Positions 2,081 to 56,400 of a DNA stretch of 64,000 nucleotides are shown here, piece by piece. The stretch lies in NCBI RefSeq assembly GCF_026210795.1, contig NC_089431.1:1550001-1614000 (forward strand), in the 5' to 3' direction. The notes under the pieces are model-generated. The model did not search any database. It saw nothing but the letters and a program-made list of their open reading frames with translations, and was not told where the DNA came from. The position numbers and the translations under genes were made by a program. Positions within the stretch are counted from its first letter, which is position 1; the number at the start of each line of letters is the position of its first letter. The stretch comes from Rhizophagus irregularis. Its lineage: Eukaryota.

Positions 2081-2396
2081 CTGTATTATCATTTATACTT
2101 ATTTTGGAATTTTTTTGCTTCAACATATTATAATATTCTATTATTTTATTAATATGAAAAACAGCGTATTAAAAAAAATGAAATTTGTAATGATAAGAAA
2201 ATTACTATATTCTTTCATGTGCTTGGGTAAGCCTTCCACATATCTAATTAGAAACCAACTGAATCATAGTACTCTGAATTTGGTAAATATTGACATAATT
2301 ACGCTAGATGTGATATCATACCATCTATACTTAATAAATATGGTCTAGTTTTATTTTTAAAGGATCGCTTTTTTCTCATTCCTATTCATTCTCAAA

Positions 2397-3788
2397 ATGA
2401 CAAGGGGATATTCATTAGAACAAGATTTAAAGTTATTAATAGATAATCCAAAATATAGTGATGTAGAAATATTATGTGAGGATGAAAAGAAATTACATGG
2501 TTCTAGAGCAATTTTAGCAGCAAGGTCAGAAGTATTTGACAGATTACTTTACAATGGGACGAAAGAAAACCAAATTTCTTTTCCAAAAATTAATTTTTCT
2601 GGAATGAAAATAATATTAGAATATATTTATACTGGTTCAGTTAAAAAAGAATCTATAAATAAAAACAATATAATTGAAGCTTTTCATGCTGCGGAATATT
2701 TTCAATTACCGAATCTTCAAGAATTTATTATGAAAACTGTTAAAAGTGCTCTAGAAAATAATTACGTGAATAATTATTCACCAGAATTATTATCCAAAGC
2801 TGTGAAAATAATGCCATTATCAGAAGATAATGTTATTATAAATTTATTGGTTGAAGCGGTATCAATTATACCATTAAATACTATTGAATTTGGTCGATTA
2901 TCTATCACAGCACTTCAGCATCTTTTATCATGTACGCATGGAAAAGAAAAATCTTTTGTCACTCCAGAATATGAAGTTTTCCGATATAGTGCTATTCTCG
3001 CAGCGAAACAAGTTTCTAATGATGCATATGAAACTCTTATGGAAAGGTTGCCAATTTTTGAACAAATAAAAAATTCAATACAAGCATCAAATAAACTTAT
3101 AACTGATCATCAAAAAGTCGCAAAAGAATTAGAGCCTTTGACAAAATTTATTGATTTTAGCCGAATAAAAGGACAAATTTTAACAGATATTATTGAACCC
3201 TTAGAAATTGCTCCATCGAAAATAATTATGGATGTTTATCGGCAAATAGCTAAATTAAATAATTTAAATTCAAGTGAAATTCGAGGAATACTACCAACAA
3301 TTTACGTTTGGGATGAATCAGCATGTGGGTCGGACCTTATTATTGAGGATAATGGAAAATTTGTATACGGTAAGAATAATGCACACCAAATTGTTAGAGC
3401 TAAAAGGATACTGGATAATAAAGGAATTTTTGAATGGGATGTTATTATTGAAAAATTTTGTAAAGATGCTTGGATTGGAGTATGTGCAACAGAAAATTTT
3501 AATTACGAAACCTGGCCAGGAAATCAACCTACCGGATGGATATTGGGTACAAATGGTTATTCTTATAATTCTGGTAAGAGGACATTATATTGTCCATCGT
3601 TTCAAAATGATAACGTAAAAGTAACAGTTCATTTAAATATGAATGAAAGAACTTGCGCTTTTTCAGTCAATGGTACAAAATATCCAGTAGTATCAAATTG
3701 GAATAATTTACCATCAAAACTTTATCCAGTAGCATCATTACATTATCCTGGTCGCCTTCGGATTCAGCCTTATCAATTTTTATTATAA
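2397..3788 (+). CDS. BTB/POZ + SPRY(B30.2)/ConA-like domain protein, 463 aa, intronless
   Basis: N-terminal BTB motifs (YSDVEILC..LHGSRAILAARSEVF, ILEYIYTG, AAEYFQLPNL). C-terminal SPRY-like motifs (GIFEWDVIIE, WIGVC, VTVHLNMNERTCAFSVNG, LPSKLYPVASL). Confidence 0.9.
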   Translation: MTRGYSLEQDLKLLIDNPKYSDVEILCEDEKKLHGSRAILAARSEVFDRLLYNGTKENQISFPKINFSGMKIILEYIYTGSVKKESINKNNIIEAFHAAEYFQLPNLQEFIMKTVKSALENNYVNNYSPELLSKAVKIMPLSEDNVIINLLVEAVSIIPLNTIEFGRLSITALQHLLSCTHGKEKSFVTPEYEVFRYSAILAAKQVSNDAYETLMERLPIFEQIKNSIQASNKLITDHQKVAKELEPLTKFIDFSRIKGQILTDIIEPLEIAPSKIIMDVYRQIAKLNNLNSSEIRGILPTIYVWDESACGSDLIIEDNGKFVYGKNNAHQIVRAKRILDNKGIFEWDVIIEKFCKDAWIGVCATENFNYETWPGNQPTGWILGTNGYSYNSGKRTLYCPSFQNDNVKVTVHLNMNERTCAFSVNGTKYPVVSNWNNLPSKLYPVASLHYPGRLRIQPYQFLL

Positions 3789-5760: not shown

Positions 5761-7149
5761 TTATCGAATTATTTGATAAGGCAGAATTCGAAGACGACCA
5801 GGATGACTTATTGATACTACTGGAAAAAGTTTTGACGGTAAATCCTTCACTGATATTTCCTTATACTTTGTACCATCAATTGAAAAAGCACAAGTTTTTT
5901 TATACATATTTAGGTGAACAGTTATTTTTGTATTATCCTTTCTAAATTGTAAACAATAATTTGATCCTTTATTAGAATTCTTAAAATGACCATAGGAACC
6001 TAATACCCAACCGGTAGATTGATATCCTGCCCGCTTTTCATAATCAAAATTTTCTGATGCACATACCCCAACCCAAGTATCAACACAATATTTTTCAATA
6101 ATAACGTTCCATTCAAAAATTCCTTTATAATCTAATGGCATTTTAGCTCTAACACTTAGATGTCCACAACCATCCGGTGCATGCACAACTTTTCCATTGT
6201 CTTCAATTGATCCACATGCTGATTCATCCCAAACATAATCTGATTCTGTAAATTTATACATTGATATTCCTCGAACTCCACTAGGAAATAAATTATTTGA
6301 TTTAGCTATCTGACGATAAACACTTACAATCATATTAGATGGAGTGATTTCTAATGGTTCGATAATATCGGATAAAATTTGACTTTCTATTTGACTAAAA
6401 TCAATAAAATGAGCCAAAGGCTCCAATTCATTGGCAACTTTTTGATGACCAGTAATAGAATTATTACGTACTTGGTTTGAATCCTCTATTTGGTCTAAGG
6501 CCGGTAACTGTTCCATAAGAGTTTCATACGCACCATTAGAAACTTGTTTTGCTGCAAGAATAGCATTATATCGAAAAACTTCATATTCTGGAGTGGCAAA
6601 AGGTTTTTCTTTTTTATACGTGCAGGATAAAAGATGTCGAAGTGCTTTAATAGATAATCGATCAGGTTCAATAGTATCCAATGGTATAATTGATACCGTT
6701 TCAACCAATAAATTTAGAAGAATATTATTTTCTGATAATGACATTATATCCATAATTTTGGATAATAATTCTGGTGAATAATTTTCCAAATAATCCGCAT
6801 TTTTAATAATATTCATAATAAATTCCTGAAGTGATGGTAATTTAAAATTATCTGCAGCATAATAAGTTTCAATTATGTTATTTTTATTTAAAGATTCTTT
6901 ATTAATTGAACCAGTATAAATATATTCTAATATAATATTCATTACGAAAGAATTAATTTTTGGAAAAGAAATTTGGGTTTCTTTCATCCCACTATAAAGT
7001 AATCTGTCAAATACTTCAGACCTTGCCGCTAAAATTGCTCTAGAACCATATAATTTCTTTTCATTTTCACATAATATTTCTATATCGCTACATTTTTCAT
7101 TATCTATTAATAATTTTAAATCTTGTTCTAACGAATATCCTCTCGTCAT
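5761..7149 (-). CDS. BTB/POZ-SPRY family protein
   Basis: ORF track 5761..7311; start placed at the family-conserved MTRGYSLEQ ATG (7149). Same motifs as the 2397 copy. Confidence 0.9.
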   Translation of the reverse strand: MTRGYSLEQDLKLLIDNEKCSDIEILCENEKKLYGSRAILAARSEVFDRLLYSGMKETQISFPKINSFVMNIILEYIYTGSINKESLNKNNIIETYYAADNFKLPSLQEFIMNIIKNADYLENYSPELLSKIMDIMSLSENNILLNLLVETVSIIPLDTIEPDRLSIKALRHLLSCTYKKEKPFATPEYEVFRYNAILAAKQVSNGAYETLMEQLPALDQIEDSNQVRNNSITGHQKVANELEPLAHFIDFSQIESQILSDIIEPLEITPSNMIVSVYRQIAKSNNLFPSGVRGISMYKFTESDYVWDESACGSIEDNGKVVHAPDGCGHLSVRAKMPLDYKGIFEWNVIIEKYCVDTWVGVCASENFDYEKRAGYQSTGWVLGSYGHFKNSNKGSNYCLQFRKDNTKITVHLNMYKKTCAFSIDGTKYKEISVKDLPSKLFPVVSISHPGRLRILPYQIIR

Positions 7150-7604
7150 TTTTGAGAATGAGAGAATTTTTAACCACATAAAAAACGTACAATATGTCCA
7201 ATAAATGTCAAGTAAATGTTCATAATAGGGTCGATTTTCCGAACAAAAAACCGACAGTGTTTGGACAATATTTTTTACAGGGATACTTATCACATGGTAT
7301 TGACGCATCACAATTTAATTTCGAACTTAACAACCCTAAAAAAAAGTAGGATCAAAAGATCAGGCCAACCAAAACAAATCAAATCCAACCGAAAAACCCA
7401 ACCGACCGGGACATAAACAGGCCTTATATTATCCATAATATTGCGAACAGGGCTTTTTCTTAAGAAATTTCAATTTTTAATAAAGAAAAATTCTTATTTC
7501 GTTATCTCAAATATATAGTACATTATCGCTATTCAATTAATAAAAATAATAGTGATTTATTATTCAATAATCAGAAATATATATGATTTTTTTCAAATAT
7601 TCAT

Positions 7605-8528: not shown

Positions 8529-9932
8529 TCAAACTATACTATAAGGCAGAATTCGAATGCGAGCGTGACGGTATAATGATACTACTGGATAAAGTTTTGA
8601 TGGTAATTCCTTCACTGATACTTCCTTATACTTTGTACCATCAACTGAAAAAGCGAAAGTTTTTTTATTCATATCTAGGTGAACAGTTATTTTTGTATTA
8701 TTCTTTTTAAAGTGTGGACAATAATTTGATCTACCACCATTATAATCGCTAATATTACCATCTGTACCTAATGCCCTTGAAGTAGGTTGTCCCACCCACT
8801 TTTCATAATTAAAATTTTCTGATGCACATACCCCAACCCAAGTATTTACACAATGTGTTTCAATAATAACACTCCATTCAAAAATTCCTTTACAATTTAA
8901 TGGCATCTTAGCTCTAACACATTGATGTTGTTCACAACCATTTGGTGCGTACACAACTTTTCCATTATCTTCAATAATAAGTTTCGATCCACACGCTGAT
9001 TTATCCCAAACATAATCTGATTCTTTGAACTTATACATTGTAAATGGTATTCCTCGAATTTCACCTGAAACTAAATTACTTGATTTAGCCATTTTCCGAT
9101 AAACATCCATAATTATTTTTGATGGAGCAATTTCTAAGGGTTCAATAATATCTGTTAAAATTTGTCCTTTTATTCGGCTAAAATTAATAAATTCAACCAA
9201 AGGCTCTAATTCTTTTGCGACTTTTTGATAATCAGGAATAAATTTATTCGATGCTTGTATTGAATTTTTTGTTTGTTCTAAGGCCGGTAACCGTTCCATA
9301 ATAGCTTCATACGCATCATTAGAAACTTGTTTTGCTGCAAGAATAGCACTATATCGAAAAACTTCATATTCTGGAGTGGCAAAAGGTTTTTCCTTTTCAT
9401 ACGTGCAAGATAAAAGATATCGAAGTGCTTTAATAGATAATCGATCAGGTTCAATAGTATCCAATGGTATAATTGATACCGTTTCAACCAATAAATTTAG
9501 AAGAATATTATCTTCTGATAATGGCATTATACCCACAACTTTAGATAATAATTCTGGTGAATAATTTTCCAAATAATCCGCATTTTTAATAGTTGTCAAA
9601 ATAATTTCCTTAAGAGATGGTAATTGGAAATAATCCGCAGCATAAAAGGTTTCAATTATATTATTTTTATTTAAAGATTCTTTTTTAATTGAACCAGTAT
9701 AAATATATTCTAGTATAAATTTCATTACGGAAGAATTAATTTTTGGAAAAGAAATTTGGGTTTCTTTCGTCCCATTGTAAAGTAATCTGTCAAATACTTC
9801 TGACCTTGCTGCTAAAATTGCTCTAGAGCCATGTAATTTCTTTTCATTTTCACATAATATTACGAGATCACTATATTTTTCATTATCTATTAATAACCTT
9901 AAATCTTGTTCTAATGAATTTCCTCTCGTCAT
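8529..9932 (-). CDS. BTB/POZ-SPRY family protein
   Basis: ORF track 8529..10013; start placed at the conserved MTRGNSLEQ ATG (9932). Full BTB and SPRY motifs. Confidence 0.9.
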   Translation of the reverse strand: MTRGNSLEQDLRLLIDNEKYSDLVILCENEKKLHGSRAILAARSEVFDRLLYNGTKETQISFPKINSSVMKFILEYIYTGSIKKESLNKNNIIETFYAADYFQLPSLKEIILTTIKNADYLENYSPELLSKVVGIMPLSEDNILLNLLVETVSIIPLDTIEPDRLSIKALRYLLSCTYEKEKPFATPEYEVFRYSAILAAKQVSNDAYEAIMERLPALEQTKNSIQASNKFIPDYQKVAKELEPLVEFINFSRIKGQILTDIIEPLEIAPSKIIMDVYRKMAKSSNLVSGEIRGIPFTMYKFKESDYVWDKSACGSKLIIEDNGKVVYAPNGCEQHQCVRAKMPLNCKGIFEWSVIIETHCVNTWVGVCASENFNYEKWVGQPTSRALGTDGNISDYNGGRSNYCPHFKKNNTKITVHLDMNKKTFAFSVDGTKYKEVSVKELPSKLYPVVSLYRHARIRILPYSIV

Positions 9933-10071
9933 TTTTGAGAATGAAAATGAGAATGAGAATAAAAAAAAAAATATTAAGGCTAAGCATCTAAGTACGTAAT
10001 AGTGCATCGGCATTTACCAAGTTTAGAATACCATGATCAACAGAAATTTCCCCTAAATTGGATACTCTGCT

Positions 10072-24232: not shown

Positions 24233-24455
24233 AGGACCCCGAGCTATATATATAGAGGTAAAGGTACAGCCAAAAAAAATTACTATTAGCTCTACGCACT
24301 TTTTCAGGGCCGGAATTACAATAATGCCAGTCAGTGTCTAAAAAAGGAAATAAAATCCGGCCGGAATTATCTATAAAAGGAAAGATCTACATAATTATTT
24401 TTGTCAATTCTACGCAAACCCTTACCATACCTTTTTATGTATAGCTCGGGGTCCT
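24233..24455. mobile_element. MITE (AGGACCC...GGGTCCT family), copy 2
   Basis: TIRs aggaccccgagctata / tatagctcggggtcct. Internal tacgca.tttttcagggccggaatta..ataatgccagtc is shared with copy 1. Flanks aatttttc / aattttca. Confidence 0.85.
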
Positions 24456-24810
24456 AATTTTCAATGATTAATTTGTCAACGATCATATTGCCGACAACTA
24501 CTTCACCCGTTCACTGATATGTTCATTTCATCAATGATAATTTCAAAGAACTGTAACCCTGACGGAGAAGTGATTGTCATGACACACTGGTGAATTGAAC
24601 CCGTGATATATTATGTATGTGATAAAAATTTTAGTGCAACTGGCGCAATTAGGCGCACCTGCAGCAAACACTGTTAAACAATACGGTTATTGTATCATCG
24701 ATGAAGAATAAAATACATCTGATTTTTTATTTTCACGTATATCTGATATTTTCTTTTTAAATTTTATACTGTAATTCATTTTCTGACAATAACAATAAGT
24801 TAAAGGCAAA

Positions 24811-27800
24811 ATGGATGAAATTGGTAACCATAATTTCTTTTAATATTTTTATTAATAAACTGTTAAGTTTAAATGCAACAATAGAAATAGATACTTAATA
24901 TTTTATTTTAATAATAAAACTTTTATTCTAAAATTAAATATCTGTAGAGAGTAAGTTATTTAATTTTTATTGTATTATTTATGTTGTTTACATATAACTT
25001 AACTAACTTTTTATCTAAAAATATTTGATGATATTACAGTTGGTAAGTTATTTAATATTTATTGTATTATTTATGTTATTTACATGTAACTTAACTAACT
25101 TTTTATCTAAAATTAAATATCTGTAGAGAGTAGGTTATTTAATTTTTATTGTATAATTTATGTTGTTTACATGTAACTTAACTAACTTTTTATCTAAAAT
25201 TAAATATCTGTAGAGAGTAAGTTATTTAATTTCTATTGTATTATTTATGTTGTTTACATGTAACTTAACTAACTTTTTATCATATTTGTAGAGTGTAAGT
25301 TATTTAATTTCTATTGTATTATTTATGTTGTTTACATGTAATTTAACTAACTTTTTATCTAAAAAAATTTGATGATATTACAGTTGGTAAGTTATTTAAT
25401 TTTTATAGTATTGTTTACAGTATGTTGTTTACATGTAACTTAATCAACTTTTTATCTAAATTAAATATCTGTAGAGAGTAGGTTATTTAATTTTTATTGT
25501 ATTATTTACAGTATGTTGTTTACATGTAATTTAACTAACTTTTTATCTAAAATTAAATATCTGTAGAGAGTAAGTTATTTAATTTCTATTGTATTATTTA
25601 TGTTGTTTACATGTAACTTTACTAATTTTTATCTAAAATTAAATATCTGTAGAGCGTAAGTTATTTAATCTCTATTGTATTATTTATGTTGTTTATATGT
25701 AATTTAACTAACTTTTTATCTAAAATTAAATATCTGTAGAGAGTAAGTTATTTAATTTTTATTGTATTATTTATGTTGTTTACATATAACTTAACTAACT
25801 TTTTATCTAAAAATATTTGATGATATTATAGTTGGTAAGTTTATTTAATTTTTATAGTATTATTTACAGTATGTTGTTTACATGTAACTTAACTAACTTT
25901 TTATCTAAAATTAAATATCTGTAGGGCGTAAGTTATTTAATTTCTATTGTATTATTTATGTTGTTTACATATAACTTAACTTAACTTTTTATCTAAAAAT
26001 ATTTGATGATATTACAGTTGGTAAGCTATTTAGTTTTTTTGTATTATTTACAGTATATTGTTTACATGTAATTTAACCAACTTTTTATCTAAAATTAAAT
26101 ATCTGTAGGGCGTAAGTTATTTAATTTCTATTGTATTATTTATGTTGTTTACATGTAATTTAAATATTTGATGATATTATAGCTAGTAAGTTATTTAATT
26201 TTTATTGTATTATTTACAGTATGTTGCTTACATGTAACTTAACTAACTTTTTATCTAAAAATATTTGATGATATTACAGTTAGTAAGTTATTTAATTTTT
26301 ATAGTATTATTTACAGTATGTTGTTTACATGTAATTTAACTAACTTTTTATCTAAAAATATTTGATGATATTACAGTTGGTAAGTTATTTAATTTTTATA
26401 GTATTATTTACAATATGTTGTTTACATGTAACTTAACTAACTTTTTATCTAAAAATATTTGATGATATTACAGCTGGTAAGTTATTTAATTTTTTTTGTA
26501 TTATTTATAGTATGTTGTTTACATGTAATTTAACTAACTTTTTATCTAAAAATATTTGATGATATTACAGCTAGTAAGTTATTTGGTTTTTATTGTATTA
26601 TTTACAGTATGTTGTTTATGTATAACTTAACTAACTTTTTATCTAAAATTAAATATCTGTAGTTTGTAAGTTATTTAATTTCTATTATATTATGTTGTTT
26701 ACATGTAATTTAACTAACTTTTTATCTAAAAATATTTGATGATATTACAGCTAGTAAGTTATTTGATTTTTATTGTATTATTTACAGTATGTTGTTTACA
26801 TGTAACTTAACTAACTTTTTATCTAAAATTAAATATCTGTAGTTTGTAAGTTATTTAATTTTTATTGTATTATTTATGTTGTTAAATATAACTAACTAAC
26901 TTTTTATCAAAAAACATTTGATGGTATTACAGTGGGTAAGTAATTTAATTTCTATTGTATTATTTATATTGTTTACATATAATTTAACTAACTTTTTAAA
27001 TATCTGTAGATCGTAAGTAATTTAATTTCTATTGTATTACAGTATTTATGTTGTTTACATGTAACTTAACTAACTTTTTATCTAAAATTAAATATCTGTA
27101 GATAGTAAGTTATTTAATTTCTATTATATTATTTATGTTGTTTACATGTAATTTAACTAACTTTTTATCTAAAATTAAATATCTGTAGAGTGTAAGTAAT
27201 TTAATTTCTATTGTATTATTTATGTTGTTAAATATAACTAACTTTTTATCTAAAATTAAATATCTGTAGATCGTAAGTAATTTAATTTCTATTGTATTAT
27301 TTATATTGTTTACATATAATTTAACTAACTTTTTATCTAAAATTAAATATCTGTAGATCGTAAGTAATTTAATTTCTATTGTATTATTTATATTGTTTAC
27401 ATATAATTTAACTAACTTTTTATCTAAAATCAAATATCTGTAGAGTGTAAGTTATTTAATTCTTGTTGTACTATTTATGATATTTATATATAATAGTTTA
27501 AACTAATTTTTATAAAAAAATATTTAATGATATTACAGTTAGTAGGTTATTTAATTTCTATTGTATTATTTGTGTTTATTTACATTTAATAGTTTAAATT
27601 TAACTAACTTTTATAAAATAATATTTGATAATATTACAGTTGGTAAGTTATTTAACTTTTAGTATATTATTTATGTTGTTTACTTGCAATAATTTAAATT
27701 TAACTAGATAATTTCTATTGAATATTTGTAATTCTCTAAATTTAATTAAATTACAATTGCTTAATTTTTGCTTTAAAAGATTTAACTGTAATGAAATCTT

Positions 27801-30800
27801 TAGAAGAAAAGAATTCAAAATGGCATATTTCTATTAGTTCAGATGGAAAGTATTTTCTTACAATTAATCATGGTAAATATATATTTATTATATTACTTTT
27901 ATTATAATTCAAATATATTTTTACAAAATAATTTTATTTTTTTCTTATATTATTAAAGAAACTCATGAGTTTAATATTTATGATAAGATTAATAGTGATA
28001 AACCAATCAATTCCTATAATTTTAAAGAGGATTTTAAAAATAATCAAGAATTACAATCTACAGAATATGCTATTCCAAAATGGATGTTAGCTATATCAAA
28101 TTGCATTGATCAAAAATTTGTTTTTGTGGCAATATCTTGTGTAACAAAATTTGATATGTTAACTGAGAAAAGTGAGAAAATTGAAACAGAAAATTTAAAT
28201 AATTTATTAAAAGAAGATAATTTATTAAATAGTGCAGAATCTTTTGCAATTGGAATTGGAGATACAAATAAAGATCAAGAAAAAGAAGGGCAAAAAAATA
28301 ATATAAGTAAAAAATCAGGAATTACTATTATTTATAAAGTAACTTTAAATGATGGTAAAGTTCATAGGAATCCTATACATTATAATACTAGTGGAGTTGT
28401 TACTTTTATCCATAAAGAATCCACTTCTAATAAGATATTGAATTGTTTTATTTTTAATGCTAATGGAATTTATAAATTTACATGTGAAAATAATTCAAAA
28501 GATGATTTAAAGCATTTTAACTATCCAAGAAGATTTATGATTGAATTAAATACTTTATATAAGACAAAACCTTGTACATCACAATTAATAAATTGTGTCT
28601 TTGATCATTATTTTTATACAGTACAATACAAAGAAGGAATTCAAGTTATGCAATTATATGACTTAAAAACTATGCAAATACAACAAAATTTTAATATGCA
28701 TGAAGAATATTCAAATATATATGGCAAACCAATATTAGCTATTTCAAAAAATAGGCAAATGATTGCTTTTTCTTCTGGATATAGAAAATTAACCCTTTAT
28801 CTTATAGAAAATGGTTTAGAAATTGCTAGTAATGATTTTGGAAAAAATGTTAAAATAATTGATTGTCAATTTGAAAATAGTGATTCATTAATGATAATTA
28901 TTAAAAAGTCCCAGAAAGAATATGGAGAAATGCTATTTTGGAATTTATATGATTCTTCTACAAATAGATTTCATTATTACAATAAATTAAAAATTGATGA
29001 TAAGTTTACCTTACATATTGCAAGAATTCCTGATAAATTAGTATTAGTAAGAAATAATGGTTCCATATTATCAGTATATGATCATATACTTAAGAAAGAA
29101 AAGAAGAAGTCAAATAATTTAAATCATTATAAAATGCCAAATGAAATGAATGAATTTAAATATGAAGATCATAAAGATAACCAAAATATTTCAAAAGCTG
29201 AACAGCCTTTTGGACATAATAAAGAACCATGGATAAATGATAACTTTAAAAGAAAATTAGTATATCTTAATAATGATAAATCATTACAGTTATATATTGG
29301 AAAAAGTACCATTCAAGTATGGCGTAAGAAAAAAGAATATTTAACACTTGAATATATTTGGGCTCATAACGTTGAAGAAGAATCTAAAGATAATGCATTG
29401 GAAGAATTAGATTTAAGAGTTTCTAATAATAATGGTTTTTATCTTAAAGTTAAATGGAATGAATTTATTAAGGAAATTCAATGGCCATATGATAATAATG
29501 CTATTCCAACAATACATGCTTGTAATACTCTTGAATATTTACATTATCAACGGAATAAATTAGTTGGTGACAATAATCAGTGTGGTAAGTGTTTTTTTTA
29601 TATATTTTGTTATTTTGTATTTAATTATTTTTATTAAAAAATTCTATTTTTTATAATATAGTATTTGAAGAAATTAAGTATAATATTTCTTTTATTATCT
29701 GGAAATTTATCAAAAATTATCCTGATATTTGGAGATTAATGGATATCCGATATAACCTAATGGCAAAAATTATAATTGGAGGCTCAAATGCTCTTGTTAA
29801 ATATATTTTATTTGGTGATGAAAAAGTAAAACACAAAAATTTGCATATACCAAGAATAACTCGATGGATTGATGAAGAATTTAATGAAATTAGTAAAGAA
29901 TCTAATGATAATAGTGAATCAAATAAATCTAATAGCAATATTATTGATATTTGTAAATTAAGTGATTTAGAAATTGCAATTAATTTGTGTATATCAGGTA
30001 ATTATTATTTCTAAAAATCTTAAAATTTGATATTTGATTAATAAATATTTTTTATAGATCTTGAACGAAATCGTAGAATTTTAATTGTAACTTATTTACT
30101 TGAATATTATGCAAAAAATGCAACTAAACATCTTGGATGGTTAATTACTATTTCAAAAGCATTACCATCTTTATATTCTTATAAATTAGGTTTGTAATTT
30201 CATTTTTACAGTTATTATTAATTATAATCTGTTTTTAATATTTTTAAAAATTTCTTTTATAAATAGAATATTATGTAAAAGAATTATTTTATAAAAAATG
30301 TATGGAAGGTATAGAAATATCTAATATTATTGAATATAGTGATATTATACCTAAAAAAATTCAAGATACTTTAAATGATAACCAAAAGTTTCAAGCATTT
30401 AATCCTATTTCAGAACTTATTTTAAAAAGAAATGAAAAGCGAAAATTCCAAGCATTTAATTCTATCTCAAAATTTATTTTGTTAAAAATATTTAAGATAA
30501 AAAGTATTTCAAGTAATTATTCTCCAACCGTGAAAATGATTCCTTTACATAATTTTACAACTAGCAAAATACCTCAAAAAGAAAAAAAAGGTTGGCTTAA
30601 TAAATATATCTTTACAATTAAACTATTTCAATTATTATTTATTCCACATAGTTATTTGGTTAGCTATTCAAATGATGCAAAAAATCTCTCACAACTTAGT
30701 CCACTTGTTCAAATTATTAGATTAGATAATAGCGATGATATATTTAATAATCCAGTAATGGAAGCTGCAATTAACTATAAATGGCCTTCAGCAAGAAATT

Positions 30801-32334
30801 ATTTTCTCAGACTCTTTTTTATATATATTCTATTTGCAATTTGCTTTGCAGTTATTTGTGGAACTTATACAGCACACCTTGAAGCAACAGGACATCTCTG
30901 CAATTTCCTATTATTTCTTATTATCATTTTTTATTATTTAGGATGCTATTTATTAGTTGTAGAATTGATGCAGATAAGACATCGTGGTTTGAGGCATTAT
31001 CTTGATTTTTTTAACTTTGTAGATTTAACTTCAGCTATTGTAGCTATAGTTGTAATGTCAGTTTATATTGCTCCTTCATTTAGTACTGAAAATACATTTG
31101 CTAATGTTGTAACAACTAAAGAAACAGCTGTTGCAATTTCTTTTACAATGTTATTACTTTGGTTTGAATTTGTATGTACTGTATTTTTATATTTTTTTAC
31201 TAAAACATTTTGATTAAAATAAACTAACTTTTTTATATGTAAATCTTTCGATTCAGATTTTATATCTTCGGTTATTTAAAGGTAATACTATAAAATATAA
31301 AAATAATATAAAATATTAAATTATTAAGTTTAAATATATTAATTTATATTAATTTATTTAGAACCAGCAAAATATATTTATATTATATTAAATATTATTA
31401 AAAGTACATGGGTATTTCTTGTTTTCATGTTTCTTGTAATAGTTGGATTAGCACATACCTTTTTACTATTATTGCAATATCCTGATTTTATAAATCTTTC
31501 TGAGAACTCATCAAATGAAACAATAGATAACCCAGCCAAAGAATTTATTACCTCATTCCTTTCAACATATGGATGGTTAAGTGGTACTTTTTTACAACAA
31601 GATACATGGAACTTTTGGGCAGTTAAACTCATAACTCTTATTGCTAGTATTTTCTTAGTAACTATTTTACAAAATATGTTCATTGCTTTTATGGGGTAAG
31701 TTTCTTTTTTTTCTTTTTAAATTCTGCAATATATCAATTACTTTTATTCCTTTAATAAATTAATGATTTTATTAGGGGTGTGTACTCTGAAGCATATGAA
31801 AAAGGTCGTGCTGCATTATTGAGATTTCGTGCAGAATTAATTTCAGATTATGAAGCATTAGATGATATACATTTTTATACACTACCACCAGAACCAAAAT
31901 ATATTTATTATATAGGTAAATCAGAAAGTTGTGAAGAATGGGAAACAAATGTTAAAAAGCGTCAAACTAACAAAGAAAAATTATATGATGATTATGAAAA
32001 GAAAATGAGTGAAAGAAAATTAACATATAAAGAGAATGATGATGATAATAAAGATCATAATAAAGATGACGATAATAAAGATCATAATAAAGATGATGAT
32101 AATAAAGATGATAAAGATGATGATGATGATGATGATGATGATGGTGATGATGATTATGAAAGTGAAGATGAAGATGAAGATGTTATAGACAAGGTTAAGT
32201 CACTTAGTAATAAAGTTAAAGAAGAATTTAAATTTCTTAAGAAAGAAATAGAAGAGGTTAAATCACTTAAGGAAGATATTAAATCACTTAATAGTAAGAT
32301 TGATCAATTGTTAAATAATAAGAATACAAATTGA
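24811..32334 (+). CDS. TRP-like cation-channel family protein with beta-propeller-like N-terminal region; predicted start exon 24811-24823, 31 three-nt micro-exons, then exons 27780-27872, 27959-29584, 29662-29997, 30058-30189, 30267-31171, 31257-31281, 31362-31695, 31776-32334
   Basis: All junctions from 27780 on are GT..AG and phase-consistent. Multiple TM helices (FLRLFFIYILFAICF.., YLLVVELMQI, FNFVDL, LLWFEFILYLRLF), pore/S6 and TRP-like ..ILQNMFIAFMGGVYSEAYEKGRAALLRFRAELI. WD-like ISSDGKYF and LAISKNRQMIAF. Acidic tail plus coiled coil. The 5' micro-exon part is less certain than the body. Confidence 0.85.
24930..27700 (+). repeat. Tandem array of ~31 units (74-101 bp), each a complete GT-AG intron plus a 3-nt exon
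   Basis: Unit: gtaagttatttaattt(t/c)tattgtattattta..tgttgtttacatgtaacttaactaactttttatctaaaa + (ttaaatatctgtag | atatttgatgatattacag) + NNN. Confidence 0.95.
32038..32182 (+). repeat. Coding acidic repeat (DDDNKDHNK)n / (GAT)n
   Basis: gatgatgataataaagatcataataaa units and a GAT run within the last channel exon. Confidence 0.9.
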
Positions 32335-38625: not shown

Positions 38626-39443
38626 AATGGTGCGGTAAACTGTGATAGTAACGGTTAAAGTGTTATTTAAAATTGCGCGTTATATTAGGATAAATTTCGA
38701 AATTCGTTCTGATTAATAGTTATTTTTATGATTATAAATTATCTAAGAATGTCTGAAAGAAAATTCTATTTTATCCGATTCTTTGAAAATGGTCGAATAT
38801 ATAAACTTTTTCGTTATATTTTAAATAGCCATGCAGTTCTGAGAAAATTTTATACATTACTAATAGTATCAGCATAACCATTTCACTCATTTCACACAAT
38901 TTCACAATCGCAGACTACTAAGTAATATCTTCTAGAAAGAAATTGCCAATTGCAAAGTTGCTTCTTTTAAATCAGTGGTGTGCTTGGAAGGTTTCTGATA
39001 ACTTTTATTGGAATTGGAAGGCATGTTGGAAGATTTGAAGTTCCAATATATCATGTGCGTTGAAAGCTTCCAATACTTTCAAAACTTCCAAGTTCCAATT
39101 ATATATCCATGAAAAATTTTTAAATAGATAAAAATTTTTCTCAAACGTTTCTTTTATTTTACATTTACCAACTTAAAAACAATGACCGCTAAAAGAAAAC
39201 ATAAACCTAAAACCATCGTCTATTCGCCTAACACAGTACTTAGCAAACAAAATAATCGGAAATAACCGTTTTAATATCTAACGAAGTTTAAATCAGTAAA
39301 TCATATGGTTTAATTGGATAATGGAATTCTTCAATAGGTTGATCATAATTACGTCATGTTTACCATGTTTACCATATTTAGAATATTTATTACGTACAAA
39401 TTTTAAATTTTTGATTTTTTTTCGCTCATTCTCGTTCTTAAAA

Positions 39444-40841
39444 ATGACGAAAGGATATTCATTAGAACAAGATTTAAGGTTATTAATGAATAATGAAAAA
39501 TATAGTGATATAGAAATAATATGTGAAAATGAAAAGAAATTACATGGTTCTAGAGTAATCTTAGCAGCAAGGTCAGAAGTATTTGACAGATTACTTTATA
39601 GGACGAAAGAAAATCGAATTTCTTTTTCAAACATTAATTTCTCCGTAATGAAAATTATATTAGAATATATTTATACTGGTTCAATTAAAAAAGAATCTTT
39701 AGATAGAAATAATATAATTGAAACCTTTTATGCTGCGGGTCATTTTCAATTACCATCTCTTCAGGAATTTATTCTGGCATCTATTAAGAATGCGAGTTAT
39801 TTAGAAAATTATTCACCAGAATTGTTATCCAAAATTGTGGATATAATGCCATTATCAGAAGATAATATTCTTCTAAATTTATTGGTTGAAACAGTATCAA
39901 TTATATCATTGGATACTATTGAACATGGTCGATTATCTATTAAAGCACTTCGACATCTTTTATCTTGTACTTATAAAAAAGAAAAACCCTTTGCCACTCC
40001 AGAATATGAAGTTTTTCGATATAGTGCTATTCTTGCTGCAAAACAAGTTTCTAATGATGCATATGAAAATATTATGGAACGGTTACCGGCCTTAGATCAA
40101 ATAAAAAATTCAAATCAAGTACAAAACAATTCTATTACTGATCATCAAAAAATTGAAAAGGAATTGGAGCCTTTGACTCATTTCATTGATTTTAGTCAAA
40201 TAGAAAGACAAATTTTAACTGATTTTATCGAACCATTAGGAATCACTTCATCAAATTTGATTTTAAATGTCTATCGTCAAATAGTTAAATCAAATAATTT
40301 ATATTCTAGTGGAATACGAGGAATATCAATGTATAAATTTAAAGAGTCAAATTATGTTTGGGATGAATCAGCATGTGGACCCAAACTTATTTTTGAAGAT
40401 AATGGAAAAGTTGTGTACGCGCCAGATGGTTGTGGACATCAAAGTGTTAGAGCTAAAATGCCATTAGATTATAAAGGAATTTTTGAATGGAGCGTCATTA
40501 TTGAAAAATATTGTGTAAATGCTTGGGTTGGGGTATGTGCATCAGAAAATTTTAGTTTTGAATGGTGGGCGGGATGTCAACCTACTGGATGGGCTTTAGG
40601 CACTTGTGGTTACTTCCATAATTCTAACAAGGTATTGAAGTATTGCTCACAATTTCAAAATAATGACATTAAAGTAACAGTTCATTTAAATATGTATAAA
40701 AAAACTTGCGCTTTTTCGGTTAATGATATGATGTATAAGGAAATATCAGTGAAAGATTTACCGTCAAAACTTTACCCAGTAGTATCATTAAAGAATAATG
40801 GTCGCCTTCGAATTCTGCCTTATCAAAAAGTAAATTTTTGA
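39444..40841 (+). CDS. BTB/POZ-SPRY family protein
   Basis: ORF track 39321..40841; start placed at the conserved MTKGYSLEQ ATG (39444). Confidence 0.9.
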   Translation: MTKGYSLEQDLRLLMNNEKYSDIEIICENEKKLHGSRVILAARSEVFDRLLYRTKENRISFSNINFSVMKIILEYIYTGSIKKESLDRNNIIETFYAAGHFQLPSLQEFILASIKNASYLENYSPELLSKIVDIMPLSEDNILLNLLVETVSIISLDTIEHGRLSIKALRHLLSCTYKKEKPFATPEYEVFRYSAILAAKQVSNDAYENIMERLPALDQIKNSNQVQNNSITDHQKIEKELEPLTHFIDFSQIERQILTDFIEPLGITSSNLILNVYRQIVKSNNLYSSGIRGISMYKFKESNYVWDESACGPKLIFEDNGKVVYAPDGCGHQSVRAKMPLDYKGIFEWSVIIEKYCVNAWVGVCASENFSFEWWAGCQPTGWALGTCGYFHNSNKVLKYCSQFQNNDIKVTVHLNMYKKTCAFSVNDMMYKEISVKDLPSKLYPVVSLKNNGRLRILPYQKVNF

Positions 40842-47934: not shown

Positions 47935-48899
47935 TATAAAAATTAATATTCAAGTAGAATCAACCCGCCTGAACAACTTTCAATTAATAAATGAAGTTGA
48001 TTTCATTTGTCCAAAGTAGATATATTACGCTCTAAATTAAAAAAACAGAAAAGAGAGTTAATATCGTTAAGAAAAATGCAATTTTCTTTAAGCACTACAC
48101 CTACATTCATAAAAATTAATATTCAAGTAGAATCAATCCACCTGAACAATTTTTAATTAATAAATAAAGTTGATTTCATTTGTCCAAAGTGGAGATATTA
48201 CGCTCTAAATTAAAAAAACAGAAAAGATAGAGAGTTAATATCATCAAGAAAAATGCAATCTTCTCTAAGCACTACACCTATATTCATGAAAATTAATATT
48301 CAAGTAGAATCAACCCACCTGAACAACTTTCAATTAATAAATGAAGTTGATTTCATTTGTCCAAAGTGGAGATATTACGCTCTAATTAAAAAAAAACAGA
48401 AAAGAGAGTTAATATCATCAAGAAAAATGCAATCTTCTCTAAGTACTACACCTATATTCATGAAAATTAATATTCAAGCAGAATCAACCCACCTGAACAA
48501 CTTTCAATTAATAAATGAAGTTGATTTCATTTGTCCAAAGTGGAGATATTACGCTCTAAATTAAAAAAACAGAAAAGAGAGTTAATATCATCAAGAAAAA
48601 TGCAATCTTCTTTAAGCACTACACCTATATTCATGAAAATTAATATTCAAGTAGAATCAACCCGCCTGAACAACTTTCAATTAATAAATAAAGTTGATTT
48701 CATTTGTCCAAAGTGAAGATATTACGCTCTAAATTAAAAAAAAAAACAGAAAAGAGAGTTAATATCATCAAGAAAAATGCAATCTTCTCTAAGCACTACA
48801 TCTACATTCATGAAAATTAATATTCAAGTGCTTTTAACCCGCCTGAACAACTTTCAATTAATAAATAAAGTTGATTTCATTTGTCCAAAGTGGAGATTA
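47935..48899. repeat. Tandem repeat, ~5.5 copies of 173-177 bp
   Basis: attaatattcaag recurs at 47942, 48115, 48292, 48466, 48639 and 48816. Confidence 0.95.
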
Positions 48900-50593: not shown

Positions 50594-51377
50594 ACGTGAA
50601 AACGATTCTGACCAATTAAAAAAGAATTGAAAATTGGAACTGTTCGGAGCTTTTTTATTATTCAATGTTTTGATCATTGAAATGATCAACGCACTAGTAT
50701 TATTGGTTTAATTTTTAATATAAAAATTATATTGTAATGGATAAAATAATTAAAACAATATATTATTTTTATTTAATAAATTTTAGTAAAAACTTCATTA
50801 TTTAATTAAATGTTAATTAAATTTAATTGTTTTTTCATTTTTAATTTTTTTTTAATTTTTTTTTATTTATCTCTTTGACGATGATCAAAGAAAAAAGATG
50901 ATCAACAAAATTTTTTTTTTACAAAAGTTTATTATTTGATAATTAAACTTAACAAGCAATAAGAGTATCACAGAAGTGCCCAATTTATGATTTTATTCTA
51001 ATGATGTCAAAAGAAGCAATATTTGCATATAGCAATATTTTTTGAAATATTAGCATTAAATAATGTATTACTATTGAAATTGCGAATATGCATATGCATA
51101 AATTTGAACTCTAAAGTTCGCGTTGCACACTTCCAAATTTCTGAAAAAATACTTGAAGATCACACAACAAATACCAAATTAAGCGAAAAAGTACATTTAT
51201 TTGGAAAGTGATCATCAATAACTATCACATTAAAAGTATACTATCGCGAAATATCAAAATACGATTTTGAAAAAAAAACTTCTTCTTCTTTGTATTCAAG
51301 ACCATTTTTACTGCGGAATTTTTAAAGGAAAAAGTTCAATTTTAAGAGTAAGTTTATTAAGTTTTAACTTGTTCGAG

Positions 51378-53468
51378 ATGTCAGGGTCGCAACTTAGGGT
51401 CCACGCCACTCGGTCAAGTACAAGACAGCAACAAGATAAAGAAGTTAACAAACCAGGACAACAGCAAACTCTTCAAGACTCGATACATAAACCAGTCTTC
51501 AATATCAATCCTATTATTCAGGATTGGCAACCTGCAAGTTCTCGTAAAACTAAAAGAAAAGATAAAGAAAAACAAGTTGAACAAAAACAACAGAAAAAAC
51601 AACCTCGTTTGTCTTTTAGGCAACATAAATCTACTGAAAAAACTACTGATGATATGGATATTAGTCAAGATACTTTTGCTTCTTCATCTGAAAGCGGTGG
51701 CGCAGCAAAATCCAATACAGATAATCAAGTAACACCAGAAAATCTAGATGCACCAATTGATGGTGAAAAAAATGATGAAATGATCGTTGACAATGGAAAA
51801 ATTGATAATCAAACAGATGATCAATCTTTTAATAAGGATAATCAGAAAAATGGTGATACTAATGACATAATTAGTGATAATCATTCAGAAATTTTTAATA
51901 AGGCTAAACCTATTTTAGTTAAAATCAAAAAAGATTCTATTCCAGGAAACAATATTATTCAAAAAAAGTTTAATTTGAGAAAACAACTAGCTGGAATTAA
52001 TGTTACCCTGGCCGGGGGAGTTATCTTAAATAAGAAAGAACCCGAATTTATCATTTTACCAATCATGAAAAATGATTATGATAAAATTATTAATCTAGAA
52101 ATTGATATTATTGATGATGAACAGTCACATGAAAATGGTGAAGATGCAGAGTCGAGTACTAATAGTAAGGTTAAGGAAATAATAAAATTTACACCATATC
52201 AAAAAACTAAAAAAGTTTTTACTGAAGAAGAAATTAAAGACAGAAATTGTAGAACGATTAAAGTTATAAATATTCCAATTGAAATTCCTAATTATCAAAT
52301 TAGAGCTGTATTTAACAAATATGGTGAAATAGAAGAAAATGGCTTTTATACCAGAATTAGAAATTTATATATTCAAGCTTTTATTACATATAAAAAAGAA
52401 GAAAGTCTACAAAAATTTTACAAAGGCATATGGTCAGAATGGATTGGAAAACATCAAGTACTTATTGTGCCAAAAATTTTGTCAGAAGATGAAATAGAAA
52501 AAAGATCAATGTATACAGTTAAATTAACTGGATTACCATGGAATTCAACTGCTTATGATATACATGAAGCTTTAGAAGTTAACAATCCTAAGTATATTTT
52601 TATACCACGTAATCCAAATAATAATAAACCATTGAATTATGCAATAGTTTATTATGAAAATGATGAAGATATAGGTATTGCAGCAGAAAGAAATATTATT
52701 TTTTGTAATAGAACGCTTCATTGGGGAACTCCAGGTGAAAAATCATGCCATAGATGTGGTTCCTTTGATCATTTAATTAGTAAGTGTGATATTGAACCAT
52801 CTGCTAAACCACGTGTAATGAATAGAAAGCAAAAGCTTAAGGAGTTTCGTCAAGAAAATAACAAGAAGTTTAAAAAAGGCAGTTATGCAAATGTAACAAA
52901 ACAAAATTCATTTGAAAAACGTCAGCAAAGTAATAATTCAAATAATTATTCTAAATATAATAATGGAAATATTAATAGATATTGGAATAAAAATATTTCA
53001 CGTGATAGAAATAATAACGTTAATGAAAAGTCACTTGATCAAGGAATTTTCACGCAAATTAAACAACTTAATGAGAATTTGAATAAATTAGCTAATGATT
53101 TCAAAAAAATCCAACAAGAAAACTATCGTATTAAATCTGAATTTTATAAATATAAAGAAAACAAGTCTACAACAAGTTCAGGAAAAAATATTAAAGTCAA
53201 TCAAGATAGAAGTACAATCGCCTTACAAAATGAGAATAACAAAAGATCAAGAGTTGATAATGAACAACTTGAAGCCTCAGGATCTTCAGATATAGAAAAT
53301 AGTTTAAATAAACAAAATAATGAAATTAATAGATTCGGTGATGCTTTATCAACTATGAGTAAAAATATCTCAAAAATTATGGAATATTTTACTTCTGACA
53401 ATAATAATGACGTTAATAATTTTCAAGGGGATAAAATTATTGACAATAATGAATCCCATGAGGATTAA
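51378..53468 (+). CDS. LINE ORF1 (two RRM-like regions, CCHC zinc knuckle, coiled coil)
   Basis: RTIKVINIP..IRAVFNKYGEIE, YTVKLTGLP, CHRCGSFDHLISKC (C-x2-C-x4-H-x4-C). First ATG is at 51378. Confidence 0.88.
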   Translation: MSGSQLRVHATRSSTRQQQDKEVNKPGQQQTLQDSIHKPVFNINPIIQDWQPASSRKTKRKDKEKQVEQKQQKKQPRLSFRQHKSTEKTTDDMDISQDTFASSSESGGAAKSNTDNQVTPENLDAPIDGEKNDEMIVDNGKIDNQTDDQSFNKDNQKNGDTNDIISDNHSEIFNKAKPILVKIKKDSIPGNNIIQKKFNLRKQLAGINVTLAGGVILNKKEPEFIILPIMKNDYDKIINLEIDIIDDEQSHENGEDAESSTNSKVKEIIKFTPYQKTKKVFTEEEIKDRNCRTIKVINIPIEIPNYQIRAVFNKYGEIEENGFYTRIRNLYIQAFITYKKEESLQKFYKGIWSEWIGKHQVLIVPKILSEDEIEKRSMYTVKLTGLPWNSTAYDIHEALEVNNPKYIFIPRNPNNNKPLNYAIVYYENDEDIGIAAERNIIFCNRTLHWGTPGEKSCHRCGSFDHLISKCDIEPSAKPRVMNRKQKLKEFRQENNKKFKKGSYANVTKQNSFEKRQQSNNSNNYSKYNNGNINRYWNKNISRDRNNNVNEKSLDQGIFTQIKQLNENLNKLANDFKKIQQENYRIKSEFYKYKENKSTTSSGKNIKVNQDRSTIALQNENNKRSRVDNEQLEASGSSDIENSLNKQNNEINRFGDALSTMSKNISKIMEYFTSDNNNDVNNFQGDKIIDNNESHED

Positions 53469-53491
53469 ATACCCTTTAAATATTATCTTTA

Positions 53492-56400
53492 ATGATGAAC
53501 AATAAAAAAACACATTCTTTTAAGAAAAAACATTATAATAATCCTTCCCCTGTTAATCAAAAATCACGTTCAAATTTAAATAATCAACAAATTTATCGTC
53601 CGAAAACACGTCAACGACTCAATTTATCAGATATAATTAAAATAGCTTCATTGAATATTAAAGGTATAACTGATGTTAAAAAACAATTCTTAATTGATAT
53701 ATTAGGTGAATATAATATAACTATTTTGGGTCTATCAGAAACTAATATATCGAACAAAATGGCAAAACATTCTTTTAATTTTTATAGAAATAATTATGTT
53801 ACTTATTTTGCAAATGAGGAAACTAATTATAGGGGAAATGGCGTAGGTCTTATTATTAAGAAAAATTATGCACGGCATATAGTCAATTATAATAGCTTCA
53901 AAGGAAGAATTATATATGTTGATTTTATTTTTAGTGGAAATAAAAAAATGAGAATCATTAATTATTATGGAAAATCTGGACGAGTTACTTTAGACAATTT
54001 TAATCAAGAAGTTAAAATTTATTTTGATAAAATCAAAGAATTGGTTAGAGAAAGTAAAGCACAAAATGCAGAAATTATTCTTCTTGGTGATTTTAATCTT
54101 CATTATGAAAAATATCTGGATGATAAAAATAATAATCGTAAAATGAAAAAAGAACATAAACTTTTTGAATGGATTGAAGATGAACAAAATTTTTATGATC
54201 CTTTCTATATCATGTTCGATAATTTATCACAACATTTCTTAAATACTTTCTATCCTTTTAATACAAATCAAAATCCTTCTAGAATAGATTACATTTGGGT
54301 AACAGAAAATTTATTTTCAGAAACACAAGAATGCAAAATTGTTAATACAACAACAATTAATACTGATCATAGAATGTTAGTGTATTCAATATGGTCAGAA
54401 GATTTGATTGGGAATATTGCTAATATCAAACGGAAGGAAGGATTTAAAGAAGTTTATAAGTATGATAAAATGGATGGAGAGCAGTGGGAATTATTTCAGA
54501 ATGATCTTAATAAATACATTTCAAATTCAGAAATTTTAAAATTTAATTTTAACGATAAAAATAATATTAATCATATATGGGATAAGATCAAAAAAGGTCT
54601 TGTTCAAGCTAGTAAAAATTGTATTCCAATAGAAAAAATCAAATTAACTAAAAGTCGAGTCAACCCAATGAAAATATCTAATGCATATAAAGTAATGAAA
54701 TTTTTAATAAATTTCAGACGTTCAATTAAAGATTCAAGAAAAAGAAATCATGTGATCAGAAATTGGATTACATATAGAAAAAAATTATTGGAAATTGGAA
54801 GAGAAAAAAGTGATTATTGTTGGAATAAAATTCCTAAGGATGATAAAAGTGTCAAGGAAATTTTTGAAGAAATAAAAAATTTATATCAAATTTATTTAAT
54901 CCTATATAATCACGATCTTTTACAATTCAAAGAAGAAAAAATTAAACTAGCAATTGACCAACGCTGTGAAGATTTATTAGAAAATCAAAAACGTATGATT
55001 AATAGTGTAATGGAACGTGAAATTAAATCCATTGTATTAGACAGAGTTCTAATTAAAGAAAATAATGAAGATAAATTAATCACTGATGAAGAAAAAATAA
55101 AAGATATTGTAAATGATCATTTTCAAAATATTGCAGGATCAACAAACCAACCTAAGATTTTATCAGAATATTAGGCAAAATTTTATTTTCCACAAGATGA
55201 AATTAATGATAAAATTTATAAAGATTTGATGGTAGAGCCTACAAATGATGAATTGAATGAAGCTTTAAATAAATTATCTAATAATAAAGCTTCTGGACCT
55301 ACGGGTATTAGTAATGAAATGTTGAAACACACATCTCCAGAATTTAAAGAAATTATTAGAAAATTAATTATTTTAATTTTTAATAATCAAGAGATACCAT
55401 TAGAATGGAAATATGCTAATGTTTATCCTATACCAAAACCAAAGCCATGGGGTTGTCAACTAGTTAATACACGCCCAATAACTTTATTGGAAACGGCTAG
55501 GAAATTAATGGTATCAATAATGAATGCAAGATTATCAACAATTCTTCAGAAAAACAAAATTCTTAAAGGTTTACAATTTGCTGGATTGCCTTTCAGTTCA
55601 ACTTTTGAACCATTAAGAATTATTAATGAAATAATTCAAGATGCTAATGAGAATGATAAGGAACTGTGGATTTTATCATTAGACATGTCAAAAGCGTATG
55701 ATCGTGTTAATATTTTTATGTTAGAAAAAGCAATGCAACGTCTTAAAATACCAAGTTCTTTTATTAATTTAACAAAAAAGTTGTTTTTAGGACGGAAAAA
55801 TAGTGTATTTACAGCAGGAGGATTAAGTAATCCATATGATGTAATGGTTGGAATCGATCAAGGGGAAATAATCTCACCACTTTTGTGGTGTATATATTAT
55901 GATCCACTTCTTACTGCCATACAGCAAGAACACTTTGGATATCGTGTAAAGGCAAAAAAGAAAATCAATTTATATGAAAATATAGAGGTAGAAGTAAAAC
56001 AAAATATTACCAGCATGGCATATATGGATGATACTAATATGTTAGCTGGCAATAAAGAAGAATTAGAAAAAATATTAAAAACAGCTGATGACTTCTATAC
56101 TCTTAACGATATTCAAATAAATAAAGAAAAATCTGAATTGTTACTTAAGAAAAAGAATTTTAATTTTAATGAAAAAATAGAGTTAGAATTTGGCAATCAG
56201 AAAATCAAAATCAAACCTAAAGGAAAAACAGAAAGTCTTAGAATCTTGGGTGTTTGGTTCAATATATATAATGATAACAATTTTATCAAACAACAAGCCT
56301 TTGATGAAGTCAAAAATTTAAGTAATAACCTGCTGAAGAACAAATGCATAACAGATAAAATTAGTTCCTATATTTTTAATGCTGTAATATTACCACGTAT

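Follow-up and report, generated by a model that had tools for sequence, protein, structure and literature searches.

Can a stretch of apparent satellite DNA be read as protein, three coding bases at a time? This question is raised by a tandem repeat with a period of ~87 nucleotides (nt) at positions 24918-27700 of a 64-kb window of the root-symbiotic (arbuscular mycorrhizal) fungus Rhizophagus irregularis (NC_089431.1), the window being the whole stretch of DNA that was analysed; all features of the gene given below are on its forward strand. An initial annotation had described the repeat as 31 micro-exons of three bases each, separated by repeated introns and encoding the N-terminus of a TRP-like channel. 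After a computational follow-up we favour this idea with reasonable, if far from complete, confidence: the repeat is probably a genuine series of coding exons, each three bases long and flanked by copied spliceosomal introns, and this series likely diversifies the N-terminus of a predicted propeller/TRP-like channel.

Anatomy and splicing of the array

Parsing the window with the pattern [CT]AG-NNN-GTA[AG]G[TC] gave 31 matches, the first at 24948-50 and the last at 27640-42, and reproduced every unit, triplet and spacing of the initial annotation. A donor and an acceptor were found in all 31 units, and the branch motif that had been reported for most of them is present as CTAAY, placed 15-45 nt before the 3' end, in 26 of 32 introns. 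The 30 inner introns vary between 71 and 98 nt, as had been described, and their lengths cover all three remainders modulo 3; the spacer is 3 nt in 31/31 units. With the stricter donor GT[AG]AG, 28 spacers of 3 nt lie inside the array and one in the remainder of the window, while no spacer of any other length from 0 to 12 nt was found inside the array.

The array introns are mutual copies (mean identity 0.84), with exact 100-nt repeats within the array and two acceptor types, which divide the units into 18 and 13. Together with the pattern parse and the hypervariable triplets described below, this identity defines the block at 24948-27642, in which 31 exons of three bases alternate with 30 introns that are related to each other. 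Upstream, the first intron (24824-24947, 124 nt, GT..AG) is a repeat-unit copy that has become partly degenerate; it aligns to the array introns better than all shuffles.

For splicing, four sequencing runs were aligned to 27710-31950 and four to 24470-24900. In run X3, a contig of 252 nt (contig 1, depth 8.8, no other letters) covers 27779-27871 and 27958-28069, and the GT-AG intron 27873-27958 is absent from it. Ahead of 27779 this contig has 47 letters that match nothing in the aligned region 27710-31950. All 30 of the displayed letters among them correspond to the last base of exon 21 followed by exons 22-31, in order (26753-27642); the last array intron (27643-27779, 137 nt) is removed, the final G of the joined micro-exon string being read at 27779. 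Neither strand of the window DNA contains this joined string. The 47 letters plus this one equal 16 exons, so that the contig would reach exon 16 (26280) if no exon is skipped.

Because this contig joins ten consecutive spacers, together with the final base of the one before them, we regard the spacers as exons. One assembled sequence, probably a transcript, thus contains ten or more of the three-base exons, joined in their genomic order. X3 is RNA by the tool's guess, and none of the runs listed as carrying the locus is on record as RNA; the X3 contigs lack four GT-AG introns after the array, with no other letters where listed. Both the size of X3 (42 Mb, longest record 14.9 kb) and the removal of three more introns are as expected of a transcript assembly. 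Altogether, transcript support for the array is direct but thin. The exon status that had been annotated for all spacers is seen in sequence for exons 22-31 and the last base of exon 21, and is putative for exons 1-20, as is the join to the start codon.

A very different explanation takes the array for an untranslated satellite, either within one long intron or located 5' of the gene, and traces the joined sequence to a DNA copy without introns. It would fit with the guessed RNA status of X3, which has no DNA control, and with database proteins that start at the ATG at 27791. Nevertheless, a copy of this kind that holds exactly these spacers in order would have its own origin in spliced mRNA, and the four introns missing downstream, in a run of the size just given, as well as the stop avoidance and open frames of other arrays, also speak against it. 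We consider this explanation highly improbable.

Several points weigh against our preferred reading. The splice evidence comes down to a single contig of a single run, which is RNA by guess and has no DNA control, and it covers only 30 of the 93 micro-exon bases, leaving exons 1-20 unseen. The raw RNA reads of X23 and X24 have nearly no depth at the 5' part and none at the array end, and sit mostly on conserved 3' parts with 90-95% likeness; no X7 contig is listed over exon 33. The first coding exon (24811-24823, 13 nt) ends in phase 1 and has an open frame in the model, but its join to micro-exon 1 was in no contig of the four runs aligned to 24470-24900, in which X3, X4 and X7 had nothing that matched. 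The only match at exon 1, a 3225-nt contig of X9 (RNA-type by guess), diverges right after ATGG. Furthermore, no skipped isoform was seen, in contigs that drop rare variants.

Over 24723-24814 the X9 contig agrees with the window except for 2 differences, and its sequence beyond this point is different, with run-like repeated triplets. It marks 24723-24810 as a probable 5' untranslated region, although it comes from an allele or paralog and not from this exact copy. Of its next 10 phase-1 triplets, 6 belong, by eye, to the array's vocabulary of 12 triplets, against 2/9 in each of the other registers. It is a candidate allele or paralog with an array of its own, and we take it as a lead and not as confirmation of exon 1.

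Variable triplets and an open frame

Each unit was compared with its nearest unit, as defined by both 35-nt flanks and with ties resolved conservatively. Differences fell on 28/93 exon bases and on 77/2149 flank bases, an approximately eightfold excess in the exons. In the case of exons 10 and 22, no flank base differed in 70 nt and all three exon bases did. Among 19 hand-picked, longer arrays, exon diversity exceeded the mean diversity of the intron interiors in 19/19, and that of every three-column intron window in 17/19. Judged from these comparisons, the hypervariable triplets most likely reflect diversifying selection on the peptide.

A rival to this interpretation accepts that the exons are spliced, and considers the array as a neutral repeat of introns, which amplifies itself and is tolerated since every unit preserves the frame. 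The peptide would then be a dispensable floppy leader, and the intron interiors would be conserved by conversion or by splicing constraint. This is compatible with the N-termini of the paralogs ahead of the propeller, which are unconserved and varied in length, with the exact 100-nt repeats as a sign of recent copying, and with the peptide motifs searched for, which were in 0/73 homologs. However, identical 70-nt flanks around three changed exon bases, and an exon excess in 19/19 arrays, speak against it, and the identified host genes (kinase, NACHT-ankyrin, GTPase-like and channel), though few, are not a random set. We judge the neutral repeat to be unlikely, while giving it real weight.

The reading frame adds a second line of evidence. 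The phase-1 join of all 31 exons is open; since 14% of shuffled exon orders are also stop-free (P 0.14), this is weak by itself. Among 355 triplets of 23 less AT-rich loci there was no stop triplet, where 5000 shuffles gave a mean of 15 and a minimum of 4; nine apparent stop triplets, being parsing artefacts shifted by 4 nt, had been removed before this count. Likewise, 87 triplets of seven AT-rich arrays, including that of the window, contain no phase-1 stop (P 0.02 for base shuffles, 0.07 for order shuffles). The non-significant result for this array taken alone counts against our reading, in addition to the points on splicing, and so does the fact that low intron diversity could stem from conversion or splicing constraint instead of peptide selection.

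As only 11 of the 465 forward exon joins create a stop, exon skipping would be mostly harmless. This leads to a further alternative, in which the array is chiefly an alternative-splicing cassette like those of the truffle Tuber melanosporum. Splicing and not DNA change would be the main source of variety, the join seen in X3 would be one isoform, and skipping of the whole array might be common. All exons are symmetric in phase 1, the remaining 454/465 joins are stop-free, and skipping the whole array is likewise in frame. In addition, the end of the X3 contig falls on an exon boundary if exons 16-20 are included, as a branch would give, with a chance of 1 in 3, and the Tuber arrays are reported to be extensively alternatively spliced. 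On the other hand, the sole contig has ten consecutive exons without a skip, and the proposal overlaps with the optional skipping that is already a step of our preferred explanation. As the chief function, such a cassette seems improbable to us.

The gene product and the proposed explanation

A gene model was built with GT-AG demanded at every intron, and one model resulted, with 40 exons, 1371 amino acids and no internal stop. This bears out the claim that the joined array is open and in frame with the whole channel. The array encodes residues 5-35 of 1371 (93/4113 coding bases). It is followed by exon 33 (27780-27872, 93 nt, covered by X3 contig 1), at whose internal ATG (27791) the database proteins P0001 and P0002 begin; the database proteins of this gene thus lack their N-terminus. 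Exon 34 (27959-29584) has RNA joints at both ends and contains most of the predicted beta-propeller, as indicated by a strand-rich structure model and matches to propeller proteins. Exons 35-40 (29662-29997, 30058-30189, 30267-31171, 31257-31281, 31362-31695 and 31776-32334), which are open with GT-AG introns in the model, contain a helical linker, the TRP-like membrane part, an acidic tail and the stop. Of the 7 introns downstream of exon 33, 5 were seen as RNA joints.

The nearest database proteins are labelled Rhizophagus irregularis, with 88-99% identity over exon 34, and the named relatives among the 73 homologs are all Glomeromycota, three of the homologs being unnamed JGI proteins. The TRP-like identity held up: a family profile of 22 relatives matches the membrane parts of TRPV6 and TRPV5, best with TRPV6 (E 1.7e-6, profile positions 864-1047), and relatives carry precomputed PF00520/PF23317, while PF08016 in P0001 is below the cutoff (E 0.005). 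No NACHT or ankyrin match was found in P0001, P0002, P0013 or the open reading frames (ORFs) of the window. The structure model of P0002 has a mean predicted local distance difference test (pLDDT) score of 48, with a strand-rich N-terminal half and a membrane half below 50. The N-terminal half matches proteins such as Sec12 and Apaf-1, which are beta-propellers; because the TM-scores are low, the beta-propeller stays a prediction. This low confidence, in a model made without the micro-exon peptide, also weighs against our reading. Altogether, the product is predicted from these models to be a beta-propeller followed by a TRP-like membrane part. An expansion of TRP-CC channels has been reported in Glomeromycotina (PMC8778642).

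Close paralogs with an annotated full start have ~19-95 residues ahead of a conserved W-x-I-S motif, where it was found; the protein described here has 49 with the array and 10 as annotated. To the eye, the peptide resembles a propeller strand or the N-termini of paralogs, a likeness for which a motif look-up in the 73 homologs gave no support. The annotated start of one paralog, P0004, reads through a similar three-residue motif at the site of the exon-33 acceptor, and this paralog may hide a missed upstream array.

How, then, could such an array work? In each short intron, the donor fits the consensus and has a U-rich tail, and a CTAAY branch and a YAG acceptor are present as well; with this full set of signals, recognition across the intron would be possible. 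Stepwise removal of the introns would add each triplet to a growing upstream exon. The homology of the units suggests that the array grew by copying of intron and triplet together, with units shuffled by unequal crossing-over; as every unit adds exactly 3 coding bases, gain or loss would keep the frame. Diversifying selection is the most likely reason for the fast change of the triplets. Since all introns are in phase 1, each residue takes its codon from two adjacent exons, and a changed order of the units creates new residues. Optional skipping could add many isoforms, by analogy with Tuber. The variable peptide would be cytoplasmic and ahead of the propeller, where it likely tunes binding or response of the channel, perhaps, by the same analogy, in non-self sensing.

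Other features of the window lie outside this argument. A 223-nt element with 28-nt inverted ends, resembling a miniature inverted-repeat transposable element, is found at 24233-24455, ~350 nt 5' of the start codon. Four paralogous ORFs (2361-3788, 5761-7314, 8529-10013 and 39300-40841) look by eye like BTB-SPRY proteins, and three long consecutive ORFs at 51234-58996 look, again by eye, like a retroelement of the long interspersed nuclear element type. Finally, a 177-nt tandem repeat occupies 47939-48897 (5.5 copies, 93% matches).

Similar arrays and known systems

Is the array a singular case? A generic pattern of splice signals only, without sequence of the locus, was found in at least 111 metagenome stretches, and 109 loci were analysed. 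Arrays were defined by at least 4 units, a spacing of 55-125 nt and at least 3 different triplets. This rule was passed by 30 of the 109 loci, most others being simple satellites; among the 30, two repeat L075, L065 is spurious (long open frame) and four others have only 4 units. Eight AT-rich loci resemble the window array by eye, of which five pass the rule. Kinase sequence lies downstream in four of these eight, above the Pfam cutoff in L006, L020 and L070 and below it in L049. In L006, the phase-1 frame is open from the first exon through 18 exons into the kinase. L011, L021 and L074, which are AT-rich, have a similar first coding exon and then three-base exons, and their contigs end before a downstream gene.

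In the case of L009, L034, L040, L043 and L075, 9-34 three-base exons come after GTPase-like exons, a call based on weak Pfam matches in L034 and L043 only, and the introns are unrelated to those of the window. L027 (3365-6061), which like L034 and L043 is less AT-rich, holds a hydrolase-NACHT-ankyrin gene with ~30 three-base exons toward its C-terminus, in a layout of the Tuber type. In L014 (15-3180), 45 units of 56-80 nt share one identical triplet, placed between acceptor- and donor-like sites, and may be either a satellite or an array for a single residue. That the metagenome arrays are fungal is suggested by their gene families and by the signals in their introns.

In prokaryote genomes 4/119 loci passed the rule; one is a coding repeat, and the three others, from two metagenome-assembled contigs and with eukaryote-like introns, are probably contamination. 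One contig of a bacterial metagenome-assembled genome (L208, 1-8000, and L196) carries 79 units of ~102 nt with six different triplets. Its units have a donor, a pyrimidine tract, a branch-like CTGAC and an acceptor, and two of the three joined frames are open; the contig is probably eukaryotic and could be an array outside the fungi. L202 and L211 are short, AT-rich and filed under an endobacterium of arbuscular mycorrhizal (AM) fungi; each of these contigs has three intron-triplet units. They are likely host DNA, and hint at arrays in another glomeromycete family. Taken together, the scan gives evidence that the three-base-exon layout is widespread.

Common descent of the window and kinase-type array introns was not established. 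A profile of the array introns gave no significant nhmmer match, either among the 109 loci or in the remaining 61 kb of the window (best E 0.92). For seven of the eight AT-rich loci, pairwise intron scores against the window were ~2 standard deviations above shuffles per intron, but the best identities lie at 0.69-0.79, a range that overlaps with the 0.67-0.75 of five ordinary introns. Only an extended 11-nt donor, GTAAGTTATTT, is clearly shared: it is found in 21/27 array donors and 45/68 donors of the eight AT-rich loci, against 0/22 in the rest of the window.

A much broader proposal would be that one-codon-per-exon arrays are a general, repeatedly evolved diversification system of fungi that annotation has missed. 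In AM fungi, one ancestral intron cassette would sit on the 5' ends of expanded signalling families, namely TRP-like channels and tyrosine-kinase-like kinases, and would provide hypervariable N-terminal recognition peptides for non-self sensing through unit shuffling, positive selection on triplets and combinatorial skipping. We offer this as a speculation, which in its entirety is rather doubtful.

More immediately, transcript-type evidence indicates that the spliceosome is able to string together ten or more consecutive exons of three bases, and the order and fidelity of such splicing become directly testable. Apparent satellite DNA in AM fungal genomes can be coding. Single residues seem to be under selection, judging from the hypervariable triplets, and this bears on protein diversity in expanded signalling families. 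A mechanism that has been cited as a truffle peculiarity appears in channel, kinase, GTPase-like and NLR-like genes, and in a lineage of fungi far from the truffles.

Among known systems, the schistosome micro-exon genes (MEGs) had been put forward as the nearest analogue. MEGs contain runs of symmetric micro-exons with lengths in multiples of three, which are thought to vary the protein. Their exons, mostly 6-36 nt long and separated by unrelated long introns, supply the greater part of the coding sequence in genes for secreted proteins. The window array shares the symmetry (31/31 exons of 3 nt, phase 1-1); it differs in exons that are uniformly 3 nt and a minor part of the coding sequence, and in introns that are short tandem copies. 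Many related introns also arise by copying in intron gain through tandem duplication and in introner-like elements, the latter being near-identical introns dispersed over unrelated genes. Here, in contrast, the intron is copied head to tail with its attached triplet. In Coprinopsis cinerea, exons of 1-3 nt have long-read support (bioRxiv 10.1101/2024.05.10.593147); 27 three-base exons are scattered over 26 genes, compared to 31 in one array here.

The closest system is found in Tuber melanosporum, whose NACHT-ankyrin (nank) genes contain tens of codon-sized, alternatively spliced exons (PMC4986451, PMC3689799, PMC9815663, PMC13449251, PMC10197012, citing Iotti et al. 2012, Fungal Biol 116:261). 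An architecture of this kind was therefore already in print, and MEGs are the more distant comparison. The Tuber mechanism has been termed lineage-specific (PMC13449251), and no description of such arrays for Glomeromycota was found in the literature searched, which lacks most subscription papers. According to these papers on Tuber, the nank arrays, like that of the window, consist of tens of 3-nt exons in a row in an expanded fungal gene family, and gain, loss or skipping of any exon keeps the frame. The differences concern the lineage and host gene (an NLR gene of an ascomycete as opposed to a predicted propeller/TRP-like channel of a glomeromycete) and the position (a C-terminal recognition domain as opposed to the N-terminus); in addition, the window array is in phase 1 with residues spelled across exon pairs. 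Extensive alternative splicing is reported for Tuber, and the one contig seen here is in order and has no skip. In conclusion, the window array has a Tuber-like layout and falls outside the Tuber family by its host gene and position; new here are the glomeromycete lineage, the channel gene and the N-terminal phase-1 array.

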